Source: a virus
Virus genome (UHGV): UHGV-0206691
Length of the DNA: 45,469 bases
Direction: 5' to 3' (one strand)
The notes under the pieces are model-generated. The model saw only the letters and a list, made by a program, of their open reading frames with translations, searched no databases and was not told where the DNA came from. This document shows positions 3,238-39,980 of this stretch, piece by piece (position 1 is the stretch's first letter; the number at the start of each line of letters is the position of its first letter). The position numbers and the translations under genes are program-made.

Positions 3238-3271
3238 AACCCTAACTCCTCTGTCTCGTTCCGATAAGTGA

Positions 3272-3300
3272 ATAGTATCCTATTATGTTGGGGTGTGCAA
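3272..3300 (-). promoter_or_regulatory. early promoter, TTGCAC-N17-TACTAT class
   Basis: minus strand reads cTTGCACaccccaacataataggaTACTATtcactta; near-identical to the promoters at 26855, 36202 and 38070. Confidence 0.55.
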
Positions 3301-6786: not shown

Positions 6787-6808
6787 GAAAGGGGCATTAA
6801 GCCCCTTC
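6787..6808. terminator. hairpin terminator between convergent genes
   Basis: aaaGGGGCattaaGCCCCttc stem-loop; overlaps the last codons of the XRE gene. Confidence 0.5.
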
Positions 6809-7012
6809 ACCCAACGCCAGCCACTTGGCGTCTACTTCCAGCACTTCCGCCAGTTTAAACAGCGTTGCCGGGCGGACGTCCTGAGTTACTCCGAGTGCAA
6901 GCTGGTTAATCGCGCCCTGGGAAACGCCAGCCAGGACCGCCAGACGGCGCTGGGAGATGCCGAGTTCTTTGCGGCGTTGTTCTACGCGTATGCCTAGTTC
7001 AGATGGTTGCAT
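6797..7012 (-). CDS. XRE-family (Cro/CI-type) HTH transcriptional regulator
   Basis: ORF track; LGISQRRLAVLAGVSQGAINQLALG helix-turn-helix; AAGGAG RBS; divergent from gene 7137. Confidence 0.7.
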   Translation of the reverse strand: MQPSELGIRVEQRRKELGISQRRLAVLAGVSQGAINQLALGVTQDVRPATLFKLAEVLEVDAKWLALGEGA

Positions 7013-7076
7013 GTCAATTACTCCTTAGTCAGTTGATATGTGAATAGTACCATATTAATTATTTTAGAAAAGCCCA

Positions 7077-7105
7077 TTGACATGTGAATAGTTCGCTATT
7101 ATAGT
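7077..7105 (+). promoter_or_regulatory. sigma70-type promoter TTGACA-N17-TATAGT with AATAG-N4-CTATT inverted repeat in spacer
   Basis: ttgacaTGTGAATAGTTCGCTATtatagt, 31 nt upstream of gene 7137 with GAGAGGAGAG RBS. Confidence 0.6.
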
Positions 7106-9994: not shown

Positions 9995-10023
9995 TTGACA
10001 CCTGAATAGATAGCTATTATATT
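9995..10023 (+). promoter_or_regulatory. sigma70-type promoter TTGACA-N17-TATATT with AATAG-N4-CTATT inverted repeat in spacer
   Basis: ttgacaCCTGAATAGATAGCTATtatatt upstream of gene 10084. Confidence 0.6.
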
Positions 10024-13512: not shown

Positions 13513-13800
13513 ATGAGTACGCCTGAGGGCAAGATTCAGAAATACGCAAAAGACAGATTCGAGGCCCTGGGGGGCCTCGTACGAAAATTGTCGTACGAAA
13601 ATAGAGTGGGGGCCCCCGACCTGCTGGTAATCCTCCCCGGCGGCATCATCTGGTTCGTAGAGGTTAAGAAAGACGGAAGCACGAAGCCTGACCCGCATCA
13701 GTTACGGGAGCACGAGCGGATGCGTAAACGCGGCGCGAATGTTTTTGTCGTTGGTTCGTTTAAACAGGTTGACGACCTAATAGCGAACTATTATAGTTAG
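13513..13800 (+). CDS. VRR-NUC domain nuclease
   Basis: ORF track 13504..13800 trimmed to ATG after GGGAGGGG; PDLLVILPGGIIWFVEVKK PD-(D/E)XK core. Confidence 0.65.
   Translation: MSTPEGKIQKYAKDRFEALGGLVRKLSYENRVGAPDLLVILPGGIIWFVEVKKDGSTKPDPHQLREHERMRKRGANVFVVGSFKQVDDLIANYYS
13769..13797 (+). promoter_or_regulatory. sigma70-type promoter TTGACG-N17-TATAGT with AATAG-N4-CTATT inverted repeat in spacer
   Basis: ttgacgACCTAATAGCGAACTATtatagt inside the 3' end of the VRR-NUC gene, upstream of gene 13831. Confidence 0.55.
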
Positions 13801-26854: not shown

Positions 26855-26883
26855 CTTGCGCGCCCCAATATAATAGGGTACTA
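26855..26883 (+). promoter_or_regulatory. early-class promoter TTGCGC-N17-TACTAT driving accessory cassette
   Basis: cTTGCGCgccccaatataatagggTACTATtcactta; matches promoters at 3272 (minus), 36202 and 38070. Confidence 0.55.
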
Positions 26884-26914
26884 TTCACTTACACCAACAA
26901 TGAAGGGGTTTAAA

Positions 26915-27106
26915 ATGTCCAGTTTACCAGTTTCCTTAATTCTGTTTGCACTGCTAGCCTATTTTGCGCCTTTCCTGGTTGCATATTTCCGCGACCATAA
27001 AGCGAAGTTAGCGATATTCATGGCCAACCTGTTTCTCGGTTGGATTCTTCTGCCGTGGGTATTTATTTTAATCTGGGCTTGCAACTCGAATGTCAAAGAG
27101 AAGTGA
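26915..27106 (+). CDS. Imm-like superinfection-immunity family small membrane protein (63 aa, 2 TM)
   Basis: ORF track 26900..27106 trimmed to ATG with GAAGGGG RBS; RDHKAKLAIFMANLFLGWILLPWVFILIWA resembles recalled Imm-family motif. Confidence 0.5.
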   Translation: MSSLPVSLILFALLAYFAPFLVAYFRDHKAKLAIFMANLFLGWILLPWVFILIWACNSNVKEK

Positions 27107-27143
27107 GCTAGTATAGGACAAATCCTAAGCACGAGGAATAAGC

Positions 27144-28274
27144 ATGGCCCGGAAGAAAATAACCGACGAACAGTTGCAGGAAGAATTGAACGCCGGTATG
27201 AAGAATATCGACATCGCCCGTAAATACGGCATCTCGGACCGCGTTATTCGCATCCGTAAAGCGAAGCTGGCTAAGAAAGGCGTAGGCCACGGGCGCGACG
27301 TTAGCCACCTTGTACCAGATGGCTACAAGATTAAAGGTACATCGTCGCTGGTTGATGAGTTCGGCAACACTAAGCTGCAATGGGTTAAGACCGACACCGA
27401 TGCTGAACGTCAGGTCGAGTTGATGAAAGCCGTAATCGAAGGCATGAAGTCAGAGATTACACCAGTTGCGCCTGTTAAAGCGACTCGAGCCAAACGCGAC
27501 GATAAACTACTCAATCTTTACACGGTATCTGATTTTCATCTCGGTATGCTGGCATGGGCTGACGAGAGCGGCGACGACTGGGATATGAAAATCGCGGAAG
27601 ACATGTTCTCTCGATGGTTCGACGCGGCGTTTCAGAAAGCACCGGATGCAGGAACAGGAGTTATTAACCTGCTTGGCGACCTTGCACACTTCGATAGTCT
27701 GGATGCCGTTACACCCGCGAGCGGTCATATTCTTGACGCGGACACGCGCTACCAGAAACTGGTCCGCTACATGATTCGTATGGTTCGCCGTGTTGTCGAT
27801 ATGGCACTTGTTAAGCATAAGAATGTTCGCTTGCTTATCGTGCAAGGGAACCACGACGAAAGCGGAATGATTTGGTTAGCTGAGATGTTCAGTACACTAT
27901 ACGACAACGAGCCGCGCGTGTTAGTAGATACGTCGCCGGATGTTTACAAGATGGTGCAACACGGCAAAACGACGTTGTTCTTTACACACGGACATAAATG
28001 CCGGTTTGAGGTGGTAGAACCCATTATGATCGCTAAGTTCAGAAAAGCATTTGGCGAAAGCGAGTACAGTTATGCGCATGTCGGACATCTCCACCACCAA
28101 AAGATTGTAGAAAGTAGGAATATGGTAGTGGAGCAGCATCGCACTCTCGCGGCGAAAGATGCATATGCTTCTCGCGGCGGGTGGATGTCAGGTCGGAGTG
28201 CAAACGTAATTACTTATAGCGCCGAATATGGAGAGGTCGCACGTTTAACTATTTCACCGGAGATGTTGGGATGA
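27144..28274 (+). CDS. HTH-fused calcineurin-like metallophosphoesterase
   Basis: ORF track; N-terminal HTH (IDIARKYGISDRVIRIRKAKL); metallophosphoesterase motifs SDFHLG, GDLAHFD, GNHDE, THGHK, GHLHH in canonical order. Confidence 0.75.
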   Translation: MARKKITDEQLQEELNAGMKNIDIARKYGISDRVIRIRKAKLAKKGVGHGRDVSHLVPDGYKIKGTSSLVDEFGNTKLQWVKTDTDAERQVELMKAVIEGMKSEITPVAPVKATRAKRDDKLLNLYTVSDFHLGMLAWADESGDDWDMKIAEDMFSRWFDAAFQKAPDAGTGVINLLGDLAHFDSLDAVTPASGHILDADTRYQKLVRYMIRMVRRVVDMALVKHKNVRLLIVQGNHDESGMIWLAEMFSTLYDNEPRVLVDTSPDVYKMVQHGKTTLFFTHGHKCRFEVVEPIMIAKFRKAFGESEYSYAHVGHLHHQKIVESRNMVVEQHRTLAAKDAYASRGGWMSGRSANVITYSAEYGEVARLTISPEMLG

Positions 28275-34603: not shown

Positions 34604-35305
34604 TTATTTCCTCAGGGCTTTAAGTTGCCGTTCAAATTCGGCAGGGTTCGATTTATACAGGGCTAGACGCTCTGCTTCACTCATGTCTTTAAACGCTGGT
34701 GCGGCCCCGCCGCCTTTGCTACCGGAAGCCCCGCCGCCGGAAGCTGCATTTGCTTTAATCAAATGCGAAAATGCTTTGTGTTCACGCAGGTATTTGCGGA
34801 ACTGTTCCGGGTCAGTCGTGATTACATTGCCATCTGCGCCAACAAACTTAGTAACCACATCATCGCCTTCGAACTCAGTCTTAACGAACGGAGCCAGAAT
34901 GTCCACTGCTTCCGGGGTAATAAAGTCACCCGCGAAAGAGCCTAACACCGCTTTACGCTCGCTGCCGAGGATGCGCTCTGCCATTTTGGAGATGCGACCA
35001 TCTTTCTCGGCTAACACCGGGTCATACTGGCTACGAATCGTTTTTTCGAACTCGTCCATCTTACCAGCGGCTTTTAATGCCTCCTGGTGCGCGCGCTGCC
35101 GTTCTTCTTCTGCCTCTTTTGCTTTACGGGCGGCTTCTTTCTTCTCCGCCAGCAATACTTCCTGATTGGCCTTAAGCCCGGCAACTTCTTTCTCAATCAG
35201 CGCCTGAACTTCTTCAGCGGTGAACATTTTTGGCGCGTCACCGCCACCGGATTTATCTTCTGCCCCAGCTTCTTCCTGGAACGGATAACGTAAAAAACGA
35301 TTCAT
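34604..35305 (-). CDS. scaffolding protein
   Basis: ORF track 34604..35359 trimmed to ATG (MNRFLRYPF) after AGGGGACA; charged coiled-coil; precedes capsid gene. Confidence 0.6.
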   Translation of the reverse strand: MNRFLRYPFQEEAGAEDKSGGGDAPKMFTAEEVQALIEKEVAGLKANQEVLLAEKKEAARKAKEAEEERQRAHQEALKAAGKMDEFEKTIRSQYDPVLAEKDGRISKMAERILGSERKAVLGSFAGDFITPEAVDILAPFVKTEFEGDDVVTKFVGADGNVITTDPEQFRKYLREHKAFSHLIKANAASGGGASGSKGGGAAPAFKDMSEAERLALYKSNPAEFERQLKALRK

Positions 35306-35387
35306 AGTCAGTATGTCCCCTGGACGTTGGAATCCGGGCCACCCGGATTTACATGTCAAGAATAAATTATTCCAACATGCAAGGCAA

Positions 35388-35651
35388 CTATTCCAGAATA
35401 TTCCTCACGTAATCCTGCAACATAAACACTTTTAGTCTTAGTTGCCGTACACATTCTGCGTTCTGAACGTCGACAGCTAAGTCCTCGTCCGCGTCACTGC
35501 TTGGCATTGCCAGTTTGCACGGCGGCTGCATCATCGTCGTATCCGGGGATGGAATTGGCGTTGGCAACGGCGCGGGACTTGAGCAGGACGCGAGCATCAT
35601 CGAAAGTGCACACGCTGCGACCAGGCGTTTTAATGTACTTAACGACTTCAC
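35388..35651 (-). CDS. Rz1: o-spanin (Rz1-like outer-membrane lipoprotein)
   Basis: ORF track; signal peptide plus lipobox LASC then Pro-rich SSPAPLPTPIPSPD; starts inside Rz in a different frame. Confidence 0.7.
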   Translation of the reverse strand: MKSLSTLKRLVAACALSMMLASCSSPAPLPTPIPSPDTTMMQPPCKLAMPSSDADEDLAVDVQNAECVRQLRLKVFMLQDYVRNILE

Positions 35652-35883
35652 GGGTAATTACCTCCGATTTCGTCTTGCCTTCGTTGTCAGCGGCTGCGGC
35701 CTTTGATTCGTCCTGCTGCTGCCGTTGTGTTTTCTTCGCTAACTCAGCCTGTGCTTTCTGCTGTTGCTGCGAAACGAGATTCGCCCGGCCTTCGTTCCAG
35801 CCGCTGCGGTATTGAAAGTAGCCGTGTGCGTATAACAGGATGATGAAACATGCTCCCGCTACGACAGTTGCTTTAAGATTCAT
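35494..35883 (-). CDS. Rz: i-spanin (Rz-like)
   Basis: ORF track; N-terminal TM (VVAGACFIILLYAHGYF) then Gln/Ala-rich coiled-coil; GAGAAAGGAGAAAC RBS. Confidence 0.75.
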   Translation of the reverse strand: MNLKATVVAGACFIILLYAHGYFQYRSGWNEGRANLVSQQQQKAQAELAKKTQRQQQDESKAAAADNEGKTKSEVITREVVKYIKTPGRSVCTFDDARVLLKSRAVANANSIPGYDDDAAAVQTGNAKQ

Positions 35884-35906
35884 GTTTCTCCTTTCTCGAT
35901 AAGTAA

Positions 35907-35928
35907 AGCCCCGCCATAAAGCGGGGCG
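35907..35928 (-). terminator. hairpin in leader upstream of spanin genes
   Basis: AGCCCCGCcataaaGCGGGGCG; T-rich tract follows on minus strand. Confidence 0.4.
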
Positions 35929-36201
35929 CTAGTCCTTATCATTTAAACATAGAAACGGCGTAATCTCAGTAAACCAGTTACTTTTTACACAAGCAATAGA
36001 CTATGGCCCTTCCGAACGCGTCAGCGTAACTACACTCAGGACTTACGTCCCGCTCCGTTACCTGCCCGCGCCGCGGTCGCTTGTTCATACTTCACAAGCT
36101 CAGGTGAGCTTAGCACATTTTCAGTGAAAAGTCAACTATTCGAATAGTTTATTCCGACATTTACAATTGAGCGGAATACCTGGAATACGTAAATAAATAG
36201 T

Positions 36202-36230
36202 TTGCAGACACCAATATAATAGGGTACTAT
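36202..36230 (+). promoter_or_regulatory. early-class promoter TTGCAG-N17-TACTAT
   Basis: tTTGCAGacaccaatataatagggTACTATtcagttaa; 36-nt core identical to copy at 38070. Confidence 0.55.
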
Positions 36231-36258
36231 TCAGTTAACTTAAACAGGAGGTGTTACT

Positions 36259-36492
36259 ATGGGTGCGTACAAACATTCTATAAACTGGAAAGGTAGACGT
36301 GGCTTAGCTGTTCTCGAAGGGGGTGTTTCAGGCCCACACGCGTTTGGGTGGTGGCTAGTTCCATCATATTCAAACAAACATGGCGGGCAGGACTACGACT
36401 GGAATAACGCCATACCTACTAGATTCAAAACAAAGAAAGCCGCGTTGGACGCGCGTAAAGAGTTAAGAAAAGGGGGACTATTTTTACAGTAA
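36259..36492 (+). CDS. hypothetical accessory protein (77 aa)
   Basis: ORF track; CAGGAGGTG RBS; own promoter and terminator; antisense to head module. Confidence 0.5.
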   Translation: MGAYKHSINWKGRRGLAVLEGGVSGPHAFGWWLVPSYSNKHGGQDYDWNNAIPTRFKTKKAALDARKELRKGGLFLQ

Positions 36493-36497
36493 AAATA

Positions 36498-36516
36498 AGG
36501 CCCCTTAAAGGGGCCC
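36498..36516. terminator. bidirectional hairpin terminator
   Basis: AGGCCCCttaaaGGGGCCCT after stop of 36259..36492. Confidence 0.55.
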
Positions 36517-36520
36517 TCTA

Positions 36521-36982
36521 TCATTCTGGCTTAATAACCTTCGCCGCTTTACTGACAGCCTCTACACCATCGGCATCAGTAACTTTAACGAAGTATTCGC
36601 CTGCTGCGTTAACCGTCAGAGACAAGACCTCTTCAGGGGCGTTTACCACTTCCTTTCCGTCTTTGTACCAGGTCAGCGCATACGGTGCTTTGCCCGCCTT
36701 AACTTCGACAGTGATGATTGCGCTACCGTCTGCCAGTTCAGTGTCTTTCGGTTGCACAGAGAAATACACGTCGCCAGCATCAGCCAGATACGGAATCTCA
36801 TAGAGCATGCCCGCTGCAGGCAGGGCAATACCGGTCTTGTCTGCAAACGGCATAACGTCTACAGGTGCACCCAGTACACTTTCGTCTTCAATAAACACCA
36901 CGTTCTCGCCAGAGCCAGACACACGGGCGTACTGAACAACACGACGCGACGGCACATCAGTTACTTTAAAAAAGCCCATCAT
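36521..36982 (-). CDS. Ig-like domain protein (possible capsid decoration)
   Basis: ORF track; YALTWYKDGKEV...GEYFVKVTDADG I-set-like pattern. Confidence 0.5.
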   Translation of the reverse strand: MMGFFKVTDVPSRRVVQYARVSGSGENVVFIEDESVLGAPVDVMPFADKTGIALPAAGMLYEIPYLADAGDVYFSVQPKDTELADGSAIITVEVKAGKAPYALTWYKDGKEVVNAPEEVLSLTVNAAGEYFVKVTDADGVEAVSKAAKVIKPE

Positions 36983-38025
36983 TATTCCCCTTTCAGATAA
37001 TCAGCAACACGTTTATCGAGTTCCGCCATCTGCTTAAGCGTGAGCGGATTCCCGAAACCATCTACAGATATTACGCGAAACTCTTCCGGCGATATACCGC
37101 TGTTACGGAAAATCTTACCTCGCACCGGGCCGAGAGCCTGGTCCTGAAACCATGCAGGTTGTTGTTTCAGGAACTCATAATAAGTGGTGTCTGCGCTTAC
37201 CTGAGTGCCGCCTTCTGCACCCTTAGCTGCTCGTTTTGCACCTTTATCGAGGAAGTCGAATTCTGAACTTATTACAGGCGCAGTGGTACTCCTGCAATTA
37301 GGATGTGCGGGCGGCATCGGCCCTTTACCAATTTCCCACGTCATCCCGTCTCTGGCTCTGCAAATCGTACTGGTACGGCTGTCCAGCGTTGACACCCATT
37401 CGTATTTCTCGATAATGTCGTCGTTCTGGCGGTATGTCTCGTTACGGGCTTCGTTGGATACATGGGACAGCGCGGTGCGGATTACCGTAGCAGCGTTACG
37501 TTCAGAGATGTCCGCCAGTCCGCCAGCACCCACGACATTCTTAACAATCTGCCGTGTCGTCTGGCCTTGTACGAAACCCATCTTAACACCTGTTACCAGG
37601 CGCGATACTTCGGTTTCACCCCAGCTGGGCATCAGCTTAGTGAAATCGACAGGCTTGTCACTTAGTGCCAGAGGCTGAAACTCGGCGGCGGCCCACACCT
37701 GTTCGGCGGTGGGCGTAACAAATTCCGCGCCTACGTTGGCGGTCAGTGTCTTTACGTTCCACTCGGCCTCATACGCTGCCAGCTCCTTAAGGTCTTCTGT
37801 CAGCTTTGTCTGCCAGTCACCTGTAAGTCCTGTCAGTGCTTCTTCCAGGTCTCGTAACAGTTTATTCAGTCGCGCAGTGCTACGACCATCGTCGCCAAAT
37901 AGCAGCACCTGCCGTTTTATTTCGTCCCGCATTTCCTGAATGAATGGTGTGAAGTCTTTCACTTCACCGGACGCGGCGCGTTGCAGCCATATCTGGTGGC
38001 TGATTATGGATGTCAGTAAGCTCAT
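36982..38025 (-). CDS. head morphogenesis protein (Mu F / SPP1 gp7 family)
   Basis: ORF track 36982..38082 trimmed to ATG (MSLLTSII) after AGGAGGG; conserved STICRARDG ... HPNCRST. Confidence 0.8.
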   Translation of the reverse strand: MSLLTSIISHQIWLQRAASGEVKDFTPFIQEMRDEIKRQVLLFGDDGRSTARLNKLLRDLEEALTGLTGDWQTKLTEDLKELAAYEAEWNVKTLTANVGAEFVTPTAEQVWAAAEFQPLALSDKPVDFTKLMPSWGETEVSRLVTGVKMGFVQGQTTRQIVKNVVGAGGLADISERNAATVIRTALSHVSNEARNETYRQNDDIIEKYEWVSTLDSRTSTICRARDGMTWEIGKGPMPPAHPNCRSTTAPVISSEFDFLDKGAKRAAKGAEGGTQVSADTTYYEFLKQQPAWFQDQALGPVRGKIFRNSGISPEEFRVISVDGFGNPLTLKQMAELDKRVADYLKGE

Positions 38026-38069
38026 ATGCCCTCCTATAGTATCGCCAGTGTAACGCATAAAAATAATAT

Positions 38070-38098
38070 TTGCAGACACCAATATAATAGGGTACTAT
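38070..38098 (+). promoter_or_regulatory. early-class promoter TTGCAG-N17-TACTAT
   Basis: tTTGCAGacaccaatataatagggTACTATtcagttaa. Confidence 0.55.
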
Positions 38099-38129
38099 TC
38101 AGTTAAACGACAAAGAGGAGGAAGAAAAC

Positions 38130-38459
38130 ATGATTAATGCTAAAGAAGAGTTGCTCGCCCATCTGGATGGTAAAGATGTAGTTAAATGCGCCTGGTTTGC
38201 AGACTATGATGCGGATGACGCGGATTACGGTTTCGTTGAGGGGAGTAAATGGCTCCTGCGGGAGAATTACTCCCGCGGAGAATGGGAAAGCCTAATGGCC
38301 GCACTTGATTTTGAATACCACGACGGTTACGGCAGTCAAAACTTCTTCGGGGTAATTTGGTACGAAGATGGTACATGGTCTTCTCGCGGAGAATACGATG
38401 GTTCTGAATGGTGGGAATATAATGCCGTGCCGGATGTGCCGGAAGAACTTAAGCGCTAA
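38130..38459 (+). CDS. hypothetical acidic Trp/Tyr-rich accessory protein (109 aa)
   Basis: ORF track; AGAGGAGG RBS; own promoter and terminator; antisense to head module. Confidence 0.5.
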   Translation: MINAKEELLAHLDGKDVVKCAWFADYDADDADYGFVEGSKWLLRENYSRGEWESLMAALDFEYHDGYGSQNFFGVIWYEDGTWSSRGEYDGSEWWEYNAVPDVPEELKR

Positions 38460-38463
38460 AATT

Positions 38464-38487
38464 AAGGCCCCTTTAGGGGCCTTTTCT
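38464..38487. terminator. bidirectional hairpin terminator
   Basis: AAGGCCCCtttaGGGGCCTTTTcttatt. Confidence 0.6.
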
Positions 38488-39980
38488 TATTGCTGCTGTT
38501 GGTCTTGCGGAGATTGTTCCTGTCTTGCTGTAGCAGGAATCTCTCCCGCCACCTGAGTATTTGCACCTAGCGGCAACGGTGCGTCTTCGATAGCGTTCTG
38601 AATGTCCTCGTCTGTCCAGTCAGTTACGCCCGCTTTGCGCAATGCTGCATAGTAAGCGGTAGCTGGTAGCAGACCAGCGTTAATATCCGCCATCCACTGT
38701 GCGCGGTCCTGAGCGGTCATCGGTTGCAGGAAGAACTCCATATTCAGCTTGAACTCAACCTCTGTACCTTCACGCAGCCCCAGCATCGCGGACACCCAGC
38801 GCAATGCTTCGGTATACGCCATGCTTACGTTACGCGCGATTGTCGCCATAACGGACGTATCAGCGCCGCGTTGTAGACGGGCGGATTCAGCGGTTATTTG
38901 CTGCGTCGGGGTGATAAGCTGCGCACCAATCTGAATGGCCTGATTCTCTTTATCCAGCATGTTCTGCTTAGCCAGGTTGTTCTCCCCCGCCTGAACCAGA
39001 AACGCATTGCCGCCGTAGCCAATGTTATGACCTGAACGCGACCCCATGCGCACGCCGTGAGGATTGGCTTCTTTCCACTGCTCCATACTCATGTTCTCGC
39101 CCGGGGCAATGAACAGCGTTGGCTGGCCTACAACGAAGCTGGATTCCTCATTGTCTGCGCTGTTGCGGAAATGTCCGATATTAAGCTCGGCCAACGGCAG
39201 CAAAGGGGCGTCGTCAATGGTCGCGTCGTTGTTGCTGGCCCCAATGAACGTGAACGGGATTTTGCCACGTAACTGTTCGCCGAGTTCCGGGAATATTTCG
39301 ATTACTTCATCCTGCGCACCACCTTCGGCATCGAAGCGGTAAATGCGCTGGCGATAGCGCCCGTCAATCAGGTCAAGGACGCGGTATTGTTCACCGAATT
39401 TTGTTTCGAACTCTGCGCCCGGTTCTGAGTATTCCCACACCTCGCGCAATACAACCATCGTCACGCGGTTAACTGAACCGACGCGAGTCAGTCGCCAGTT
39501 GATGATGTTCTCTGCGGTATAGAATGCGATGACCGGGTTTAGTAGCCCCGCGTTCTGTTCTGCCGCCGTTGCCGCGGCTGTTTCTGGGGCGTCCACCAGC
39601 AGTCCACCACGACCCACCGAGTCAATCTCCATTAGCGTATCCTGCGCGTGCTGCCACAGCCCGACACCGGAACCGTCCACATTATGTAACAGGTACTCCA
39701 GTTCAGGCGGAATAATCTGCTCAGGGTCTTTATGCATAATGCTGCCGACCATCCCCGCCAGGGTACGCTTAGTGAAGTTGTAGCAGATAGCGCCGTTCTC
39801 GTATTCTTCCTGGCGCTGTGCCGCGTATGTCGGGTCGGGTTCGTTTTTTCCTACGTTACGAAGATAGCGAATAAGGTCGCCTTCCAGAGCGTGGCGGACC
39901 TTCTGCCATTTATTGAAGTGATGCAGCCATTCCCGGTGTTTTGTCTTAACACCCTGATTCTGACCGTTCATAGTTAACAT
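38487..39980 (-). CDS. portal protein
   Basis: ORF track; 497 aa between terminase large subunit and head morphogenesis gene; Gln-rich C-terminal tail. Confidence 0.8.
   Translation of the reverse strand: MLTMNGQNQGVKTKHREWLHHFNKWQKVRHALEGDLIRYLRNVGKNEPDPTYAAQRQEEYENGAICYNFTKRTLAGMVGSIMHKDPEQIIPPELEYLLHNVDGSGVGLWQHAQDTLMEIDSVGRGGLLVDAPETAAATAAEQNAGLLNPVIAFYTAENIINWRLTRVGSVNRVTMVVLREVWEYSEPGAEFETKFGEQYRVLDLIDGRYRQRIYRFDAEGGAQDEVIEIFPELGEQLRGKIPFTFIGASNNDATIDDAPLLPLAELNIGHFRNSADNEESSFVVGQPTLFIAPGENMSMEQWKEANPHGVRMGSRSGHNIGYGGNAFLVQAGENNLAKQNMLDKENQAIQIGAQLITPTQQITAESARLQRGADTSVMATIARNVSMAYTEALRWVSAMLGLREGTEVEFKLNMEFFLQPMTAQDRAQWMADINAGLLPATAYYAALRKAGVTDWTDEDIQNAIEDAPLPLGANTQVAGEIPATARQEQSPQDQQQQ

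Follow-up and report, generated by a model that had tools for sequence, protein, structure and literature searches.

A rare, strongly constrained basic 77-aa cargo gene in an exchangeable accessory slot of a Kagunavirus genome

Introduction

Morons, as described by Hendrix and colleagues in HK97/lambda-type phages, are autonomous units of promoter, gene, and terminator located between late genes. Virulent phages are also credited with accessory or anti-defence hotspots, and both concepts bear on the locus described here.

We analyzed the virus genome UHGV-0206691, a stretch of 45,469 nucleotides that is referred to as the window throughout, and which belongs to Kagunavirus (Guernseyvirinae). 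Its region 35400-38600 matches 314 phage records, and the top matches are Escherichia Kagunavirus with ~90% identity. Salmonella phages also match this region, and these are Jerseyvirus where the record is typed. A literature search found no transcription study for this virulent siphovirus group. An earlier note on this DNA, made from the sequence alone, had proposed a single-gene accessory cassette running opposite to the head genes and encoding a 77-aa protein, as a twin of the unit at 38070-38483, and all of its components (promoter, ribosome binding site, gene, and hairpin) are present.

Similar to morons, the cassette consists of one gene behind a predicted promoter of its own, lies between structural genes, varies from relative to relative by presence, absence, or replacement where the surroundings are collinear (27 genomes or contigs with a readable slot have, by their first ORF, at least 11 cargo families without relation to each other), and would be dispensable for building virions. 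Where a moron has its terminator, the cassette has the hairpin at 36497-36517, with its U-tract on the minus strand and the tail CUCUAUCAUU on the plus strand. In contrast to morons, the phage that carries the cassette is virulent, with no prophage expression, the cassette sits on the strand opposite to the late genes, its promoter class is common with the phage's own early genes rather than private, and its GC content is barely off that of the genome (47% vs 51%). The locus resembles anti-defence hotspots in its fixed position, its conserved flanks, its many unrelated small genes, and the DNA methylase found in some relatives, but no known anti-defence gene was identified at the slot, and for the 77-aa protein such a role is a conjecture.

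The closest counterpart is the same slot in other Guernseyvirinae (e.g. fBC-Eco01, Bas70_0006, ZCEC5, and fFiEco03), where the promoter block, ribosome binding site, hairpin, and neighbors are the same and the cargo is unrelated to the 77-aa gene. In fBC-Eco01, genes 07/08 carry the PHIRE "phage promoter 2" (PMC9825357). Because a slot with exchangeable cargo exists across the Guernseyvirinae, the cassette architecture is family-wide and already annotated; what is new is its rare, strongly constrained, and basic 77-aa cargo, for which no relatives have been described.

Gene order and transcription units around the cassette

The head module of the window is read leftward. In this order, the portal gene (38487-39980) is followed by genes for a MuF-like head morphogenesis protein (~36982-38025), a Hoc-like decoration protein (36521-36982; phrog_3945, E = 3.5e-84), and the Rz/Rz1 spanins (35494-35883 and 35388-35651), with the scaffold and then the major capsid protein beyond the spanins, all on the minus strand. 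The 77-aa gene (36259-36492) runs rightward in the gap between two leftward transcription units and overlaps no leftward gene, which agrees with its placement in the earlier note between the spanin leader and a leftward Ig-like (here Hoc-like) gene.

The first leftward unit, MuF/Hoc-like, ends at the hairpin 36497-36517 and is convergent with the cassette. The second, which comprises the leader, spanin, scaffold, and capsid genes, is divergent from it and has its own sigma70-like promoter at 36133-36105 on the minus strand. As read from the sequence, this promoter consists of TTGACT (36133-36128), 17 nt, and TAAGCT (36110-36105), and it coincides with a "host promoter" annotated in fBC-Eco01. 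Since the terminator at 36517-36497 ends the first unit and the second has a promoter of its own, the cassette lies between transcription units.

The mechanical ORF of the MuF-like gene (36982-38082) starts with TTG at 38082 and encodes 366 aa, while relatives have 347 aa. The length in relatives points to a start at ATG 38025, with AGGAGG in front, and a start at this position leaves 38026-38129 intergenic and free for the promoter of the second cassette.

The promoter belongs to a class with an embedded palindrome

Immediately upstream of the 77-aa gene, TTGCAG-17-TACTAT is a predicted promoter of its own. This sigma70-type promoter on the plus strand has its -35 hexamer TTGCAG at 36202-36207, a 17-nt spacer, and its -10 hexamer TACTAT at 36225-36230, with a predicted start at ~36237. 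The promoter had been described as identical over 36 nt to the one at 38070; the identity holds, but it extends over 38 nt (36201-36238 and 38069-38106) and the repeat can be extended to 58 nt at 84% identity. Its 29-nt core occurs exactly twice in the window, compared with 0.00 expected from 100 shuffles. The second copy (38070-38098, plus strand), identical to 36202-36230, drives the sister cassette, whose gene (38130-38459, plus strand) encodes a 109-aa protein (phrog_3972) within a whole unit of 38070-38483. Among relatives, the promoter at 36202-36230 is conserved whatever the cargo. A perfect TATAAT at 36215-36220 was considered as an alternative -10 hexamer and rejected, as no -35 hexamer is suitably spaced from it, whereas each of the five sites with the same orientation keeps precisely 17 nt between TTGCA(G/C) and TACTAT.

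The spacer and -10 hexamer are overlapped by a palindrome, AATAG-GGTA-CTATT (AATAGGGTACTATT, 36218-36231), which is a putative operator. In the genome, AATAGNNNNCTATT has 12 matches with up to 1 mismatch (1.18 expected), while the extended 18-mer ATAATAGGGTACTATTCA has 7 occurrences with up to 3 mismatches (0.02 expected). Nine sites of this kind exist in the genome, this promoter among them, and the class is not private to the two cassettes. Four of these sites are on the minus strand (1858-1875, 3269-3286, 7041-7058, and 7085-7102) and five are on the plus strand (10003-10020, 13777-13794, 26870-26887, 36216-36233, and 38084-38101). When oriented, five sites show TTGCA(G/C) or TTGCGC, 17 nt, and TACTAT, and their palindrome lies across both spacer and -10 hexamer. 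Two variant sites (10003 and 13777) show TTGAC(A/G), 17 nt, and either TATATT or TATAGT, and there the palindrome lies within the spacer. As read from these hexamers and spacings, the geometry of the class is that of a host sigma70 promoter with an embedded, putative operator. PHIRE detected the same motif seven times in fBC-Eco01 as a "phage promoter", with the consensus tgAATAGTa-ccTATTat-T (PMC9825357).

The first genes driven by this class include a 71-aa HTH_3 (Cro-like) regulator (6800-7012, minus strand; HTH_3 E = 2.3e-12), which has two tandem sites in front of it (7041-7058 and 7085-7102). Also driven are an Imm_superinfect protein followed by an SbcD-like exonuclease, a Gp2.5-like ssDNA-binding protein, and small unassigned proteins. 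The tandem palindromes suggest that the 71-aa HTH protein is a candidate trans-acting factor, i.e. an autoregulated repressor of the class, an assignment drawn only from the sites in front of the HTH gene itself. Based on the promoter class, we infer early timing for the cassette.

Three rightward islands within the leftward late module (26870, 36216, and 38084) carry the 18-mer without mismatch. Beside the two cassettes, the island at 26870-28274 encodes the 68-aa Imm_superinfect protein (26900-27106) and the 376-aa SbcD-like exonuclease (27144-28274). At the palindrome of the second cassette, the minus strand of 38084-38113 reads as a promoter-like TTGTCG, 18 nt, and TATTAT that faces MuF, so that the operator may serve back-to-back promoters.

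The hairpin is shared with the convergent Hoc-like gene

The claim that a hairpin at 36498-36516 closes the gene was borne out in part. Specifically, a GC-rich hairpin does exist (36497-36517), but its U-run is on the minus strand. On that strand, UUAUUUUUAC comes after a stem of 8-9 bp (z = -3.6), whereas on the plus strand CUCUAUCAUU comes after a stem of 7 bp. Given the U-rich tail on the minus strand, the hairpin is, by its predicted structure, primarily the terminator of the leftward Hoc-like gene, and in this phage it would stop transcription of the 77-aa gene only weakly. With UUUUAUCAUU after the plus-strand stem, the hairpin of relatives is bidirectional. In three metagenomic Guernseyvirinae-like contigs (L003, L004, and L005), the stem sequences differ and the pairing is kept, which argues for a selected structure. 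An Rfam scan of 35300-38700 returned only a sub-threshold match to Atu_C8 (30.5 bits vs a gathering score of 50); it lies over the terminator of the other cassette and was taken as chance.

The slot accepts unrelated cargo genes throughout the Guernseyvirinae

Comparative genomics, proposed earlier as a check, finds the same slot in relatives, with unrelated cargo between conserved flanks. The slot is present throughout the Guernseyvirinae and its cargo is exchangeable. For example, fBC-Eco01 carries a 33+114-aa pair, fFiEco03 a 173-aa clamp-like protein, ZCEC5 a 74-aa protein, fEg-Eco06 and Bas70 proteins of 67 aa each, and Salmonella phage PK1 a 179-aa endonuclease VII-like protein, all of them rightward and unrelated to the 77-aa protein. 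One of the cargo families is an N6_N4 DNA methylase (E = 1.7e-29). By alignment, homology with relatives runs through the promoter and ribosome binding site to 3-6 nt before the start codon, and resumes at the stop codon and hairpin; the swap junctions therefore fall between the ribosome binding site and the ATG, and at the stop codon. We hold with high confidence that the region is a hypervariable accessory slot, insulated from its surroundings, and that the cassette and slot architecture is as described.

The 77-aa gene occupies this slot in L003, L004, and L005. As slot cargo, it was seen only in metagenomic and Logan contigs, and in none of the deposited genomes searched.

Insertions of other kinds are seen nearby in relatives. 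In fEg-Eco06 (L018, 3054-4355), an intein is annotated inside the MuF-like head protein, and in L005 (6395-7995) further rightward genes are inserted close to the slot, an HNH endonuclease gene among them. With these insertions, the neighborhood looks like a hotspot for mobile elements.

The 77-aa gene is under strong purifying selection

The rightward ORF is as reported in the earlier note, with ATG at 36259, TAA at 36490-36492, 77 codons, and the translation that had been quoted. Its ribosome binding site was also found, i.e. a Shine-Dalgarno AGGAGG on the plus strand (36246-36251), 7 nt before the ATG, which relatives keep up to the cargo junction. Folding of the cassette mRNA is unremarkable (z = -0.6).

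Among ten gene copies, dN/dS (Nei-Gojobori) is 0.07-0.14 in most pairs with estimable dS, and reaches up to 0.37 in the most divergent, near-saturated pairs. In the remaining pairs, synonymous sites are saturated and the proteins are still 60-77% identical. With such low dN/dS against its homologues, the 77-aa ORF is under strong purifying selection, and 36259-36492 is a real gene and not a chance ORF.

The protein is strongly basic (pI 10.2, net charge +8), and so are all members of the family (pI 9.7-11.0, net charge +4 to +10). Conserved basic columns are R13, R14, K59, R66, K67, and R70, while W31, W48, the LVP motif at 33-35, and G43 are invariant in the family. AlphaFold2 predicts a strand at 10/13-20, a strand at 31-38/39, a strand at 44-46, and a helix at 59-71, with pLDDT of 82 and 80 and the same topology from alignments of 14 and 26 sequences.

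That the protein has no recognized motif was confirmed in Pfam, PHROGs, NCBIfam, and PDB sequences. Pfam gave no family for the window protein at E <= 1, and scans of Pfam, PHROGs, and NCBIfam returned nothing for it or for the 26 family members, of which none matches DUF1508 (PF07411, UPF0339) at E <= 10, the family of small YegP-like proteins that was compared as a known system. A profile search of PDB sequences yielded one spurious match (E = 1.4), and Foldseek found no match at E <= 0.001 in PDB and BFVD. There is no sequence or fold match to the anti-CRISPR AcrIF4, nor to three-strand-plus-helix DNA-binding domains of the AP2 or integrase type. The GBS_Bsp-like repeat (PF08481) was rejected as a relative. 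Its phmmer matches (E = 4e-7 to 5e-4) come from summed repeats and a short motif, LxPxxSNxxGQDxxxW, its hhalign probability is 11% over 35 columns, and it has no sequence resemblance where the model of the 77-aa family has its helix.

Homologues are rare and found in several non-structural contexts

About 27 homologue clusters of 66-84 aa were found among 5.8 billion proteins, and an exhaustive phmmer search of representatives added only a few further homologues. The exact protein is present in Logan assemblies, where its 90% cluster has 20 members, several of them on contigs of ~44 kb, and at least one member of this cluster is found on 28 contigs. By tblastn, the gene was found in none of 50,697 INPHARED phage records and none of 72,556 plasmids, and by blastn in none of 5,426 complete Escherichia coli genomes. 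A pattern-based scan of GTDB species representatives gave no confirmed locus, and two IMG/VR contigs carry the gene.

In the contexts read outside the slot, homologues lie in replication, recombination, or other non-structural arrays, where they run in the same direction as their neighbors, some of which are DNA-related. In two phages of ~47.8 kb (L002 and L007), the start of the homologue overlaps the stop of an SNF2-type helicase gene, and a 157-aa gene and a primase-polymerase gene follow downstream. The 157-aa neighbor was considered as VRR-NUC-like, for which Pfam gave no support. In a prophage of Enterobacter asburiae (L008), lambdoid by gene content, the homologue is downstream of an exonuclease and RecT, between the DUF1317 and MT-A70 methylase genes and close to int. 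In a 49-kb phage (L010), it belongs to a small-gene array after NinB/NinG, and in L012 and L014 to small-gene arrays as well. No neighbor gene is conserved across contexts, as only the helicase/157-aa pair recurs, and this within one lineage; guilt by association is thus weak. Orthologs with a known virion function, which the earlier note had named as evidence against an accessory role, were not encountered, as the contexts read outside the slot are non-structural.

A proposed role for the cassette and its alternatives

Taken from the sequence features above, the cassette is probably an insulated, early-expressed accessory gene whose product would bind nucleic acid or an acidic partner. Expression would begin when host sigma70 RNA polymerase starts rightward at the predicted promoter, with translation from the strong ribosome binding site. 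Because AATAG-N4-CTATT is common to the promoters of the HTH, ssDNA-binding, and superinfection-immunity/exonuclease genes, we consider it reasonably probable that the cassette is co-regulated with this early or DNA-metabolism class, and the 71-aa HTH protein would probably shut it off. Transcription would end, imperfectly in this phage, at the hairpin that is common with the convergent Hoc-like gene. Cargo genes would be swapped by homologous recombination in near-identical flanks, i.e. the promoter, ribosome binding site, and 350-bp leader on one side, and the terminator and Hoc-like gene on the other.

The product is predicted to be a soluble, strongly basic sheet-plus-helix protein that would act early in the cytoplasm. 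Judging from its charge, the conserved Arg/Lys/Trp residues, and the gene neighborhoods, it would most likely act in DNA metabolism or host defence through binding to nucleic acid or to an acidic partner. We put forward this biochemical role only tentatively, as RNA or ribosome binding, or non-specific roles, would fit a basic charge as well. We conjecture that it is a dispensable host-takeover or anti-defence accessory. More doubtful still is the fuller reading of an undescribed effector family, early, basic, and with a YegP-like fold, that would bind nucleic acid or an acidic partner directly and so neutralize a host defence or a factor of DNA metabolism, and would be horizontally shuttled among Guernseyvirinae, SNF2-helicase/primase-polymerase phages, and an Enterobacter prophage.

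The strongest alternative, which we nonetheless regard as unlikely, is that the protein is not directed at the host or its defences and serves instead as an internal replication or recombination accessory, or as a sequence-specific DNA-binding regulator with, for example, a three-strand-sheet-plus-helix like that of AP2 or integrase arm-binding domains. Consistent with this are the overlap with the SNF2-type helicase stop upstream of the primase-polymerase gene in L002/L007, the proximity to RecT and a methylase in L008, the basic pI and conserved Arg/Lys/Trp of the family, and the predicted topology of three strands and a helix. It is quite improbable, in turn, that the rightward transcription is what matters and that the ORF is a passenger, with convergent transcription or antisense RNA insulating or tuning the Hoc-like and MuF genes. 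The promoter, ribosome binding site, and hairpin are indeed kept in all relatives while the cargo is unrelated, the leaky-looking plus-strand terminator would let antisense RNA enter the Hoc-like gene, and the three rightward islands of the late module have an identical 18-mer; however, strong purifying selection acts on the ORF across very different contexts without common flanking DNA, and a strong ribosome binding site is retained.

A place flanked by the Hoc-like decoration gene on one side and by spanin, scaffold, and capsid genes on the other could also befit a virion or assembly accessory (e.g. a head-associated factor) located in the head module for that reason. This is highly improbable, given the opposite strand and early-class promoter, the homologues in replication, recombination, and non-structural regions, and the relatives whose heads form although their slot holds unrelated cargo or a methylase; the protein also has no PHROG homology to virion or head decoration proteins (Hoc-like, phrog_3945), and its gene lies on the opposite strand to theirs. 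It is equally improbable that the gene does nothing for the phage and is a selfish or decaying passenger. This would fit its rarity in INPHARED, E. coli, GTDB, and IMG/VR and the apparently frameshifted NCBI relative P0010, but not the low dN/dS of most measurable pairs, its intact state in ~27 clusters, the 20 members of its 90% cluster, or its lack of a nuclease or mobility motif.

As an insulated accessory gene, the cassette is an ordinary phage feature with an uncommon cargo, and the 77-aa family is among the rarest and best conserved cargos of the slot. The slot marks a natural insulated insertion site in Kagunavirus, with a defined promoter, ribosome binding site, and terminator. Kagunavirus genomes of 41-44 kb have been called attractive models for synthetic biology (PMC11990801). 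The set of at least 11 cargo families, one of which is a DNA methylase, also provides a compact candidate list for host-interaction or anti-defence screening, and the operator-bearing promoter class offers a model, open to testing, of how gene expression is timed in this group of virulent siphoviruses.

An ultra-conserved leader and divergent-promoter region next to the cassette

Upstream of the spanin, scaffold, and capsid genes, an ultra-conserved non-coding unit is found on the minus strand (35884-36150). Of 181 Guernseyvirinae records, from both Escherichia and Salmonella phages, 180 share ~250 nt of it (35895-36150) at an identity of 95% or more, and the flanking genes show 60-95% identity. 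The unit comprises the leftward promoter, a leader of ~200 nt, and a hairpin and U terminator (35927-35908) just before the spanin ribosome binding site.

A 36-aa leader ORF is annotated here in some records and is not conserved in frame, with 1-nt indels in L026, L030, and L035, an ATG to GTG change in L054, and absence from the divergent type. A leader hairpin with a GUAA loop shows compensatory changes (GGGAC/GUCCU to CGGAC/GUCCG, and GCC/GGC in L004). The Rfam scan of 35300-38700 had no match for the leader; MAFFT misaligned the divergent leader type, and RNAalifold on that alignment was uninformative. The leader may act in antitermination, in the manner of lambda PR'-6S-tR' or of put, or it may be a small RNA.

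Two elements, each unique in the window, lie between the divergent promoters (36134-36189): AACTATTCGAATAGTT, a perfect palindrome of 16 bp (36134-36149), and GGAATAcctGGAATA, a direct repeat (36173-36187). TATTCC/GGAATA repeats persist even in the divergent contig L004, and 36134-36189 may be an array of binding sites for a regulator of the late leftward promoter.
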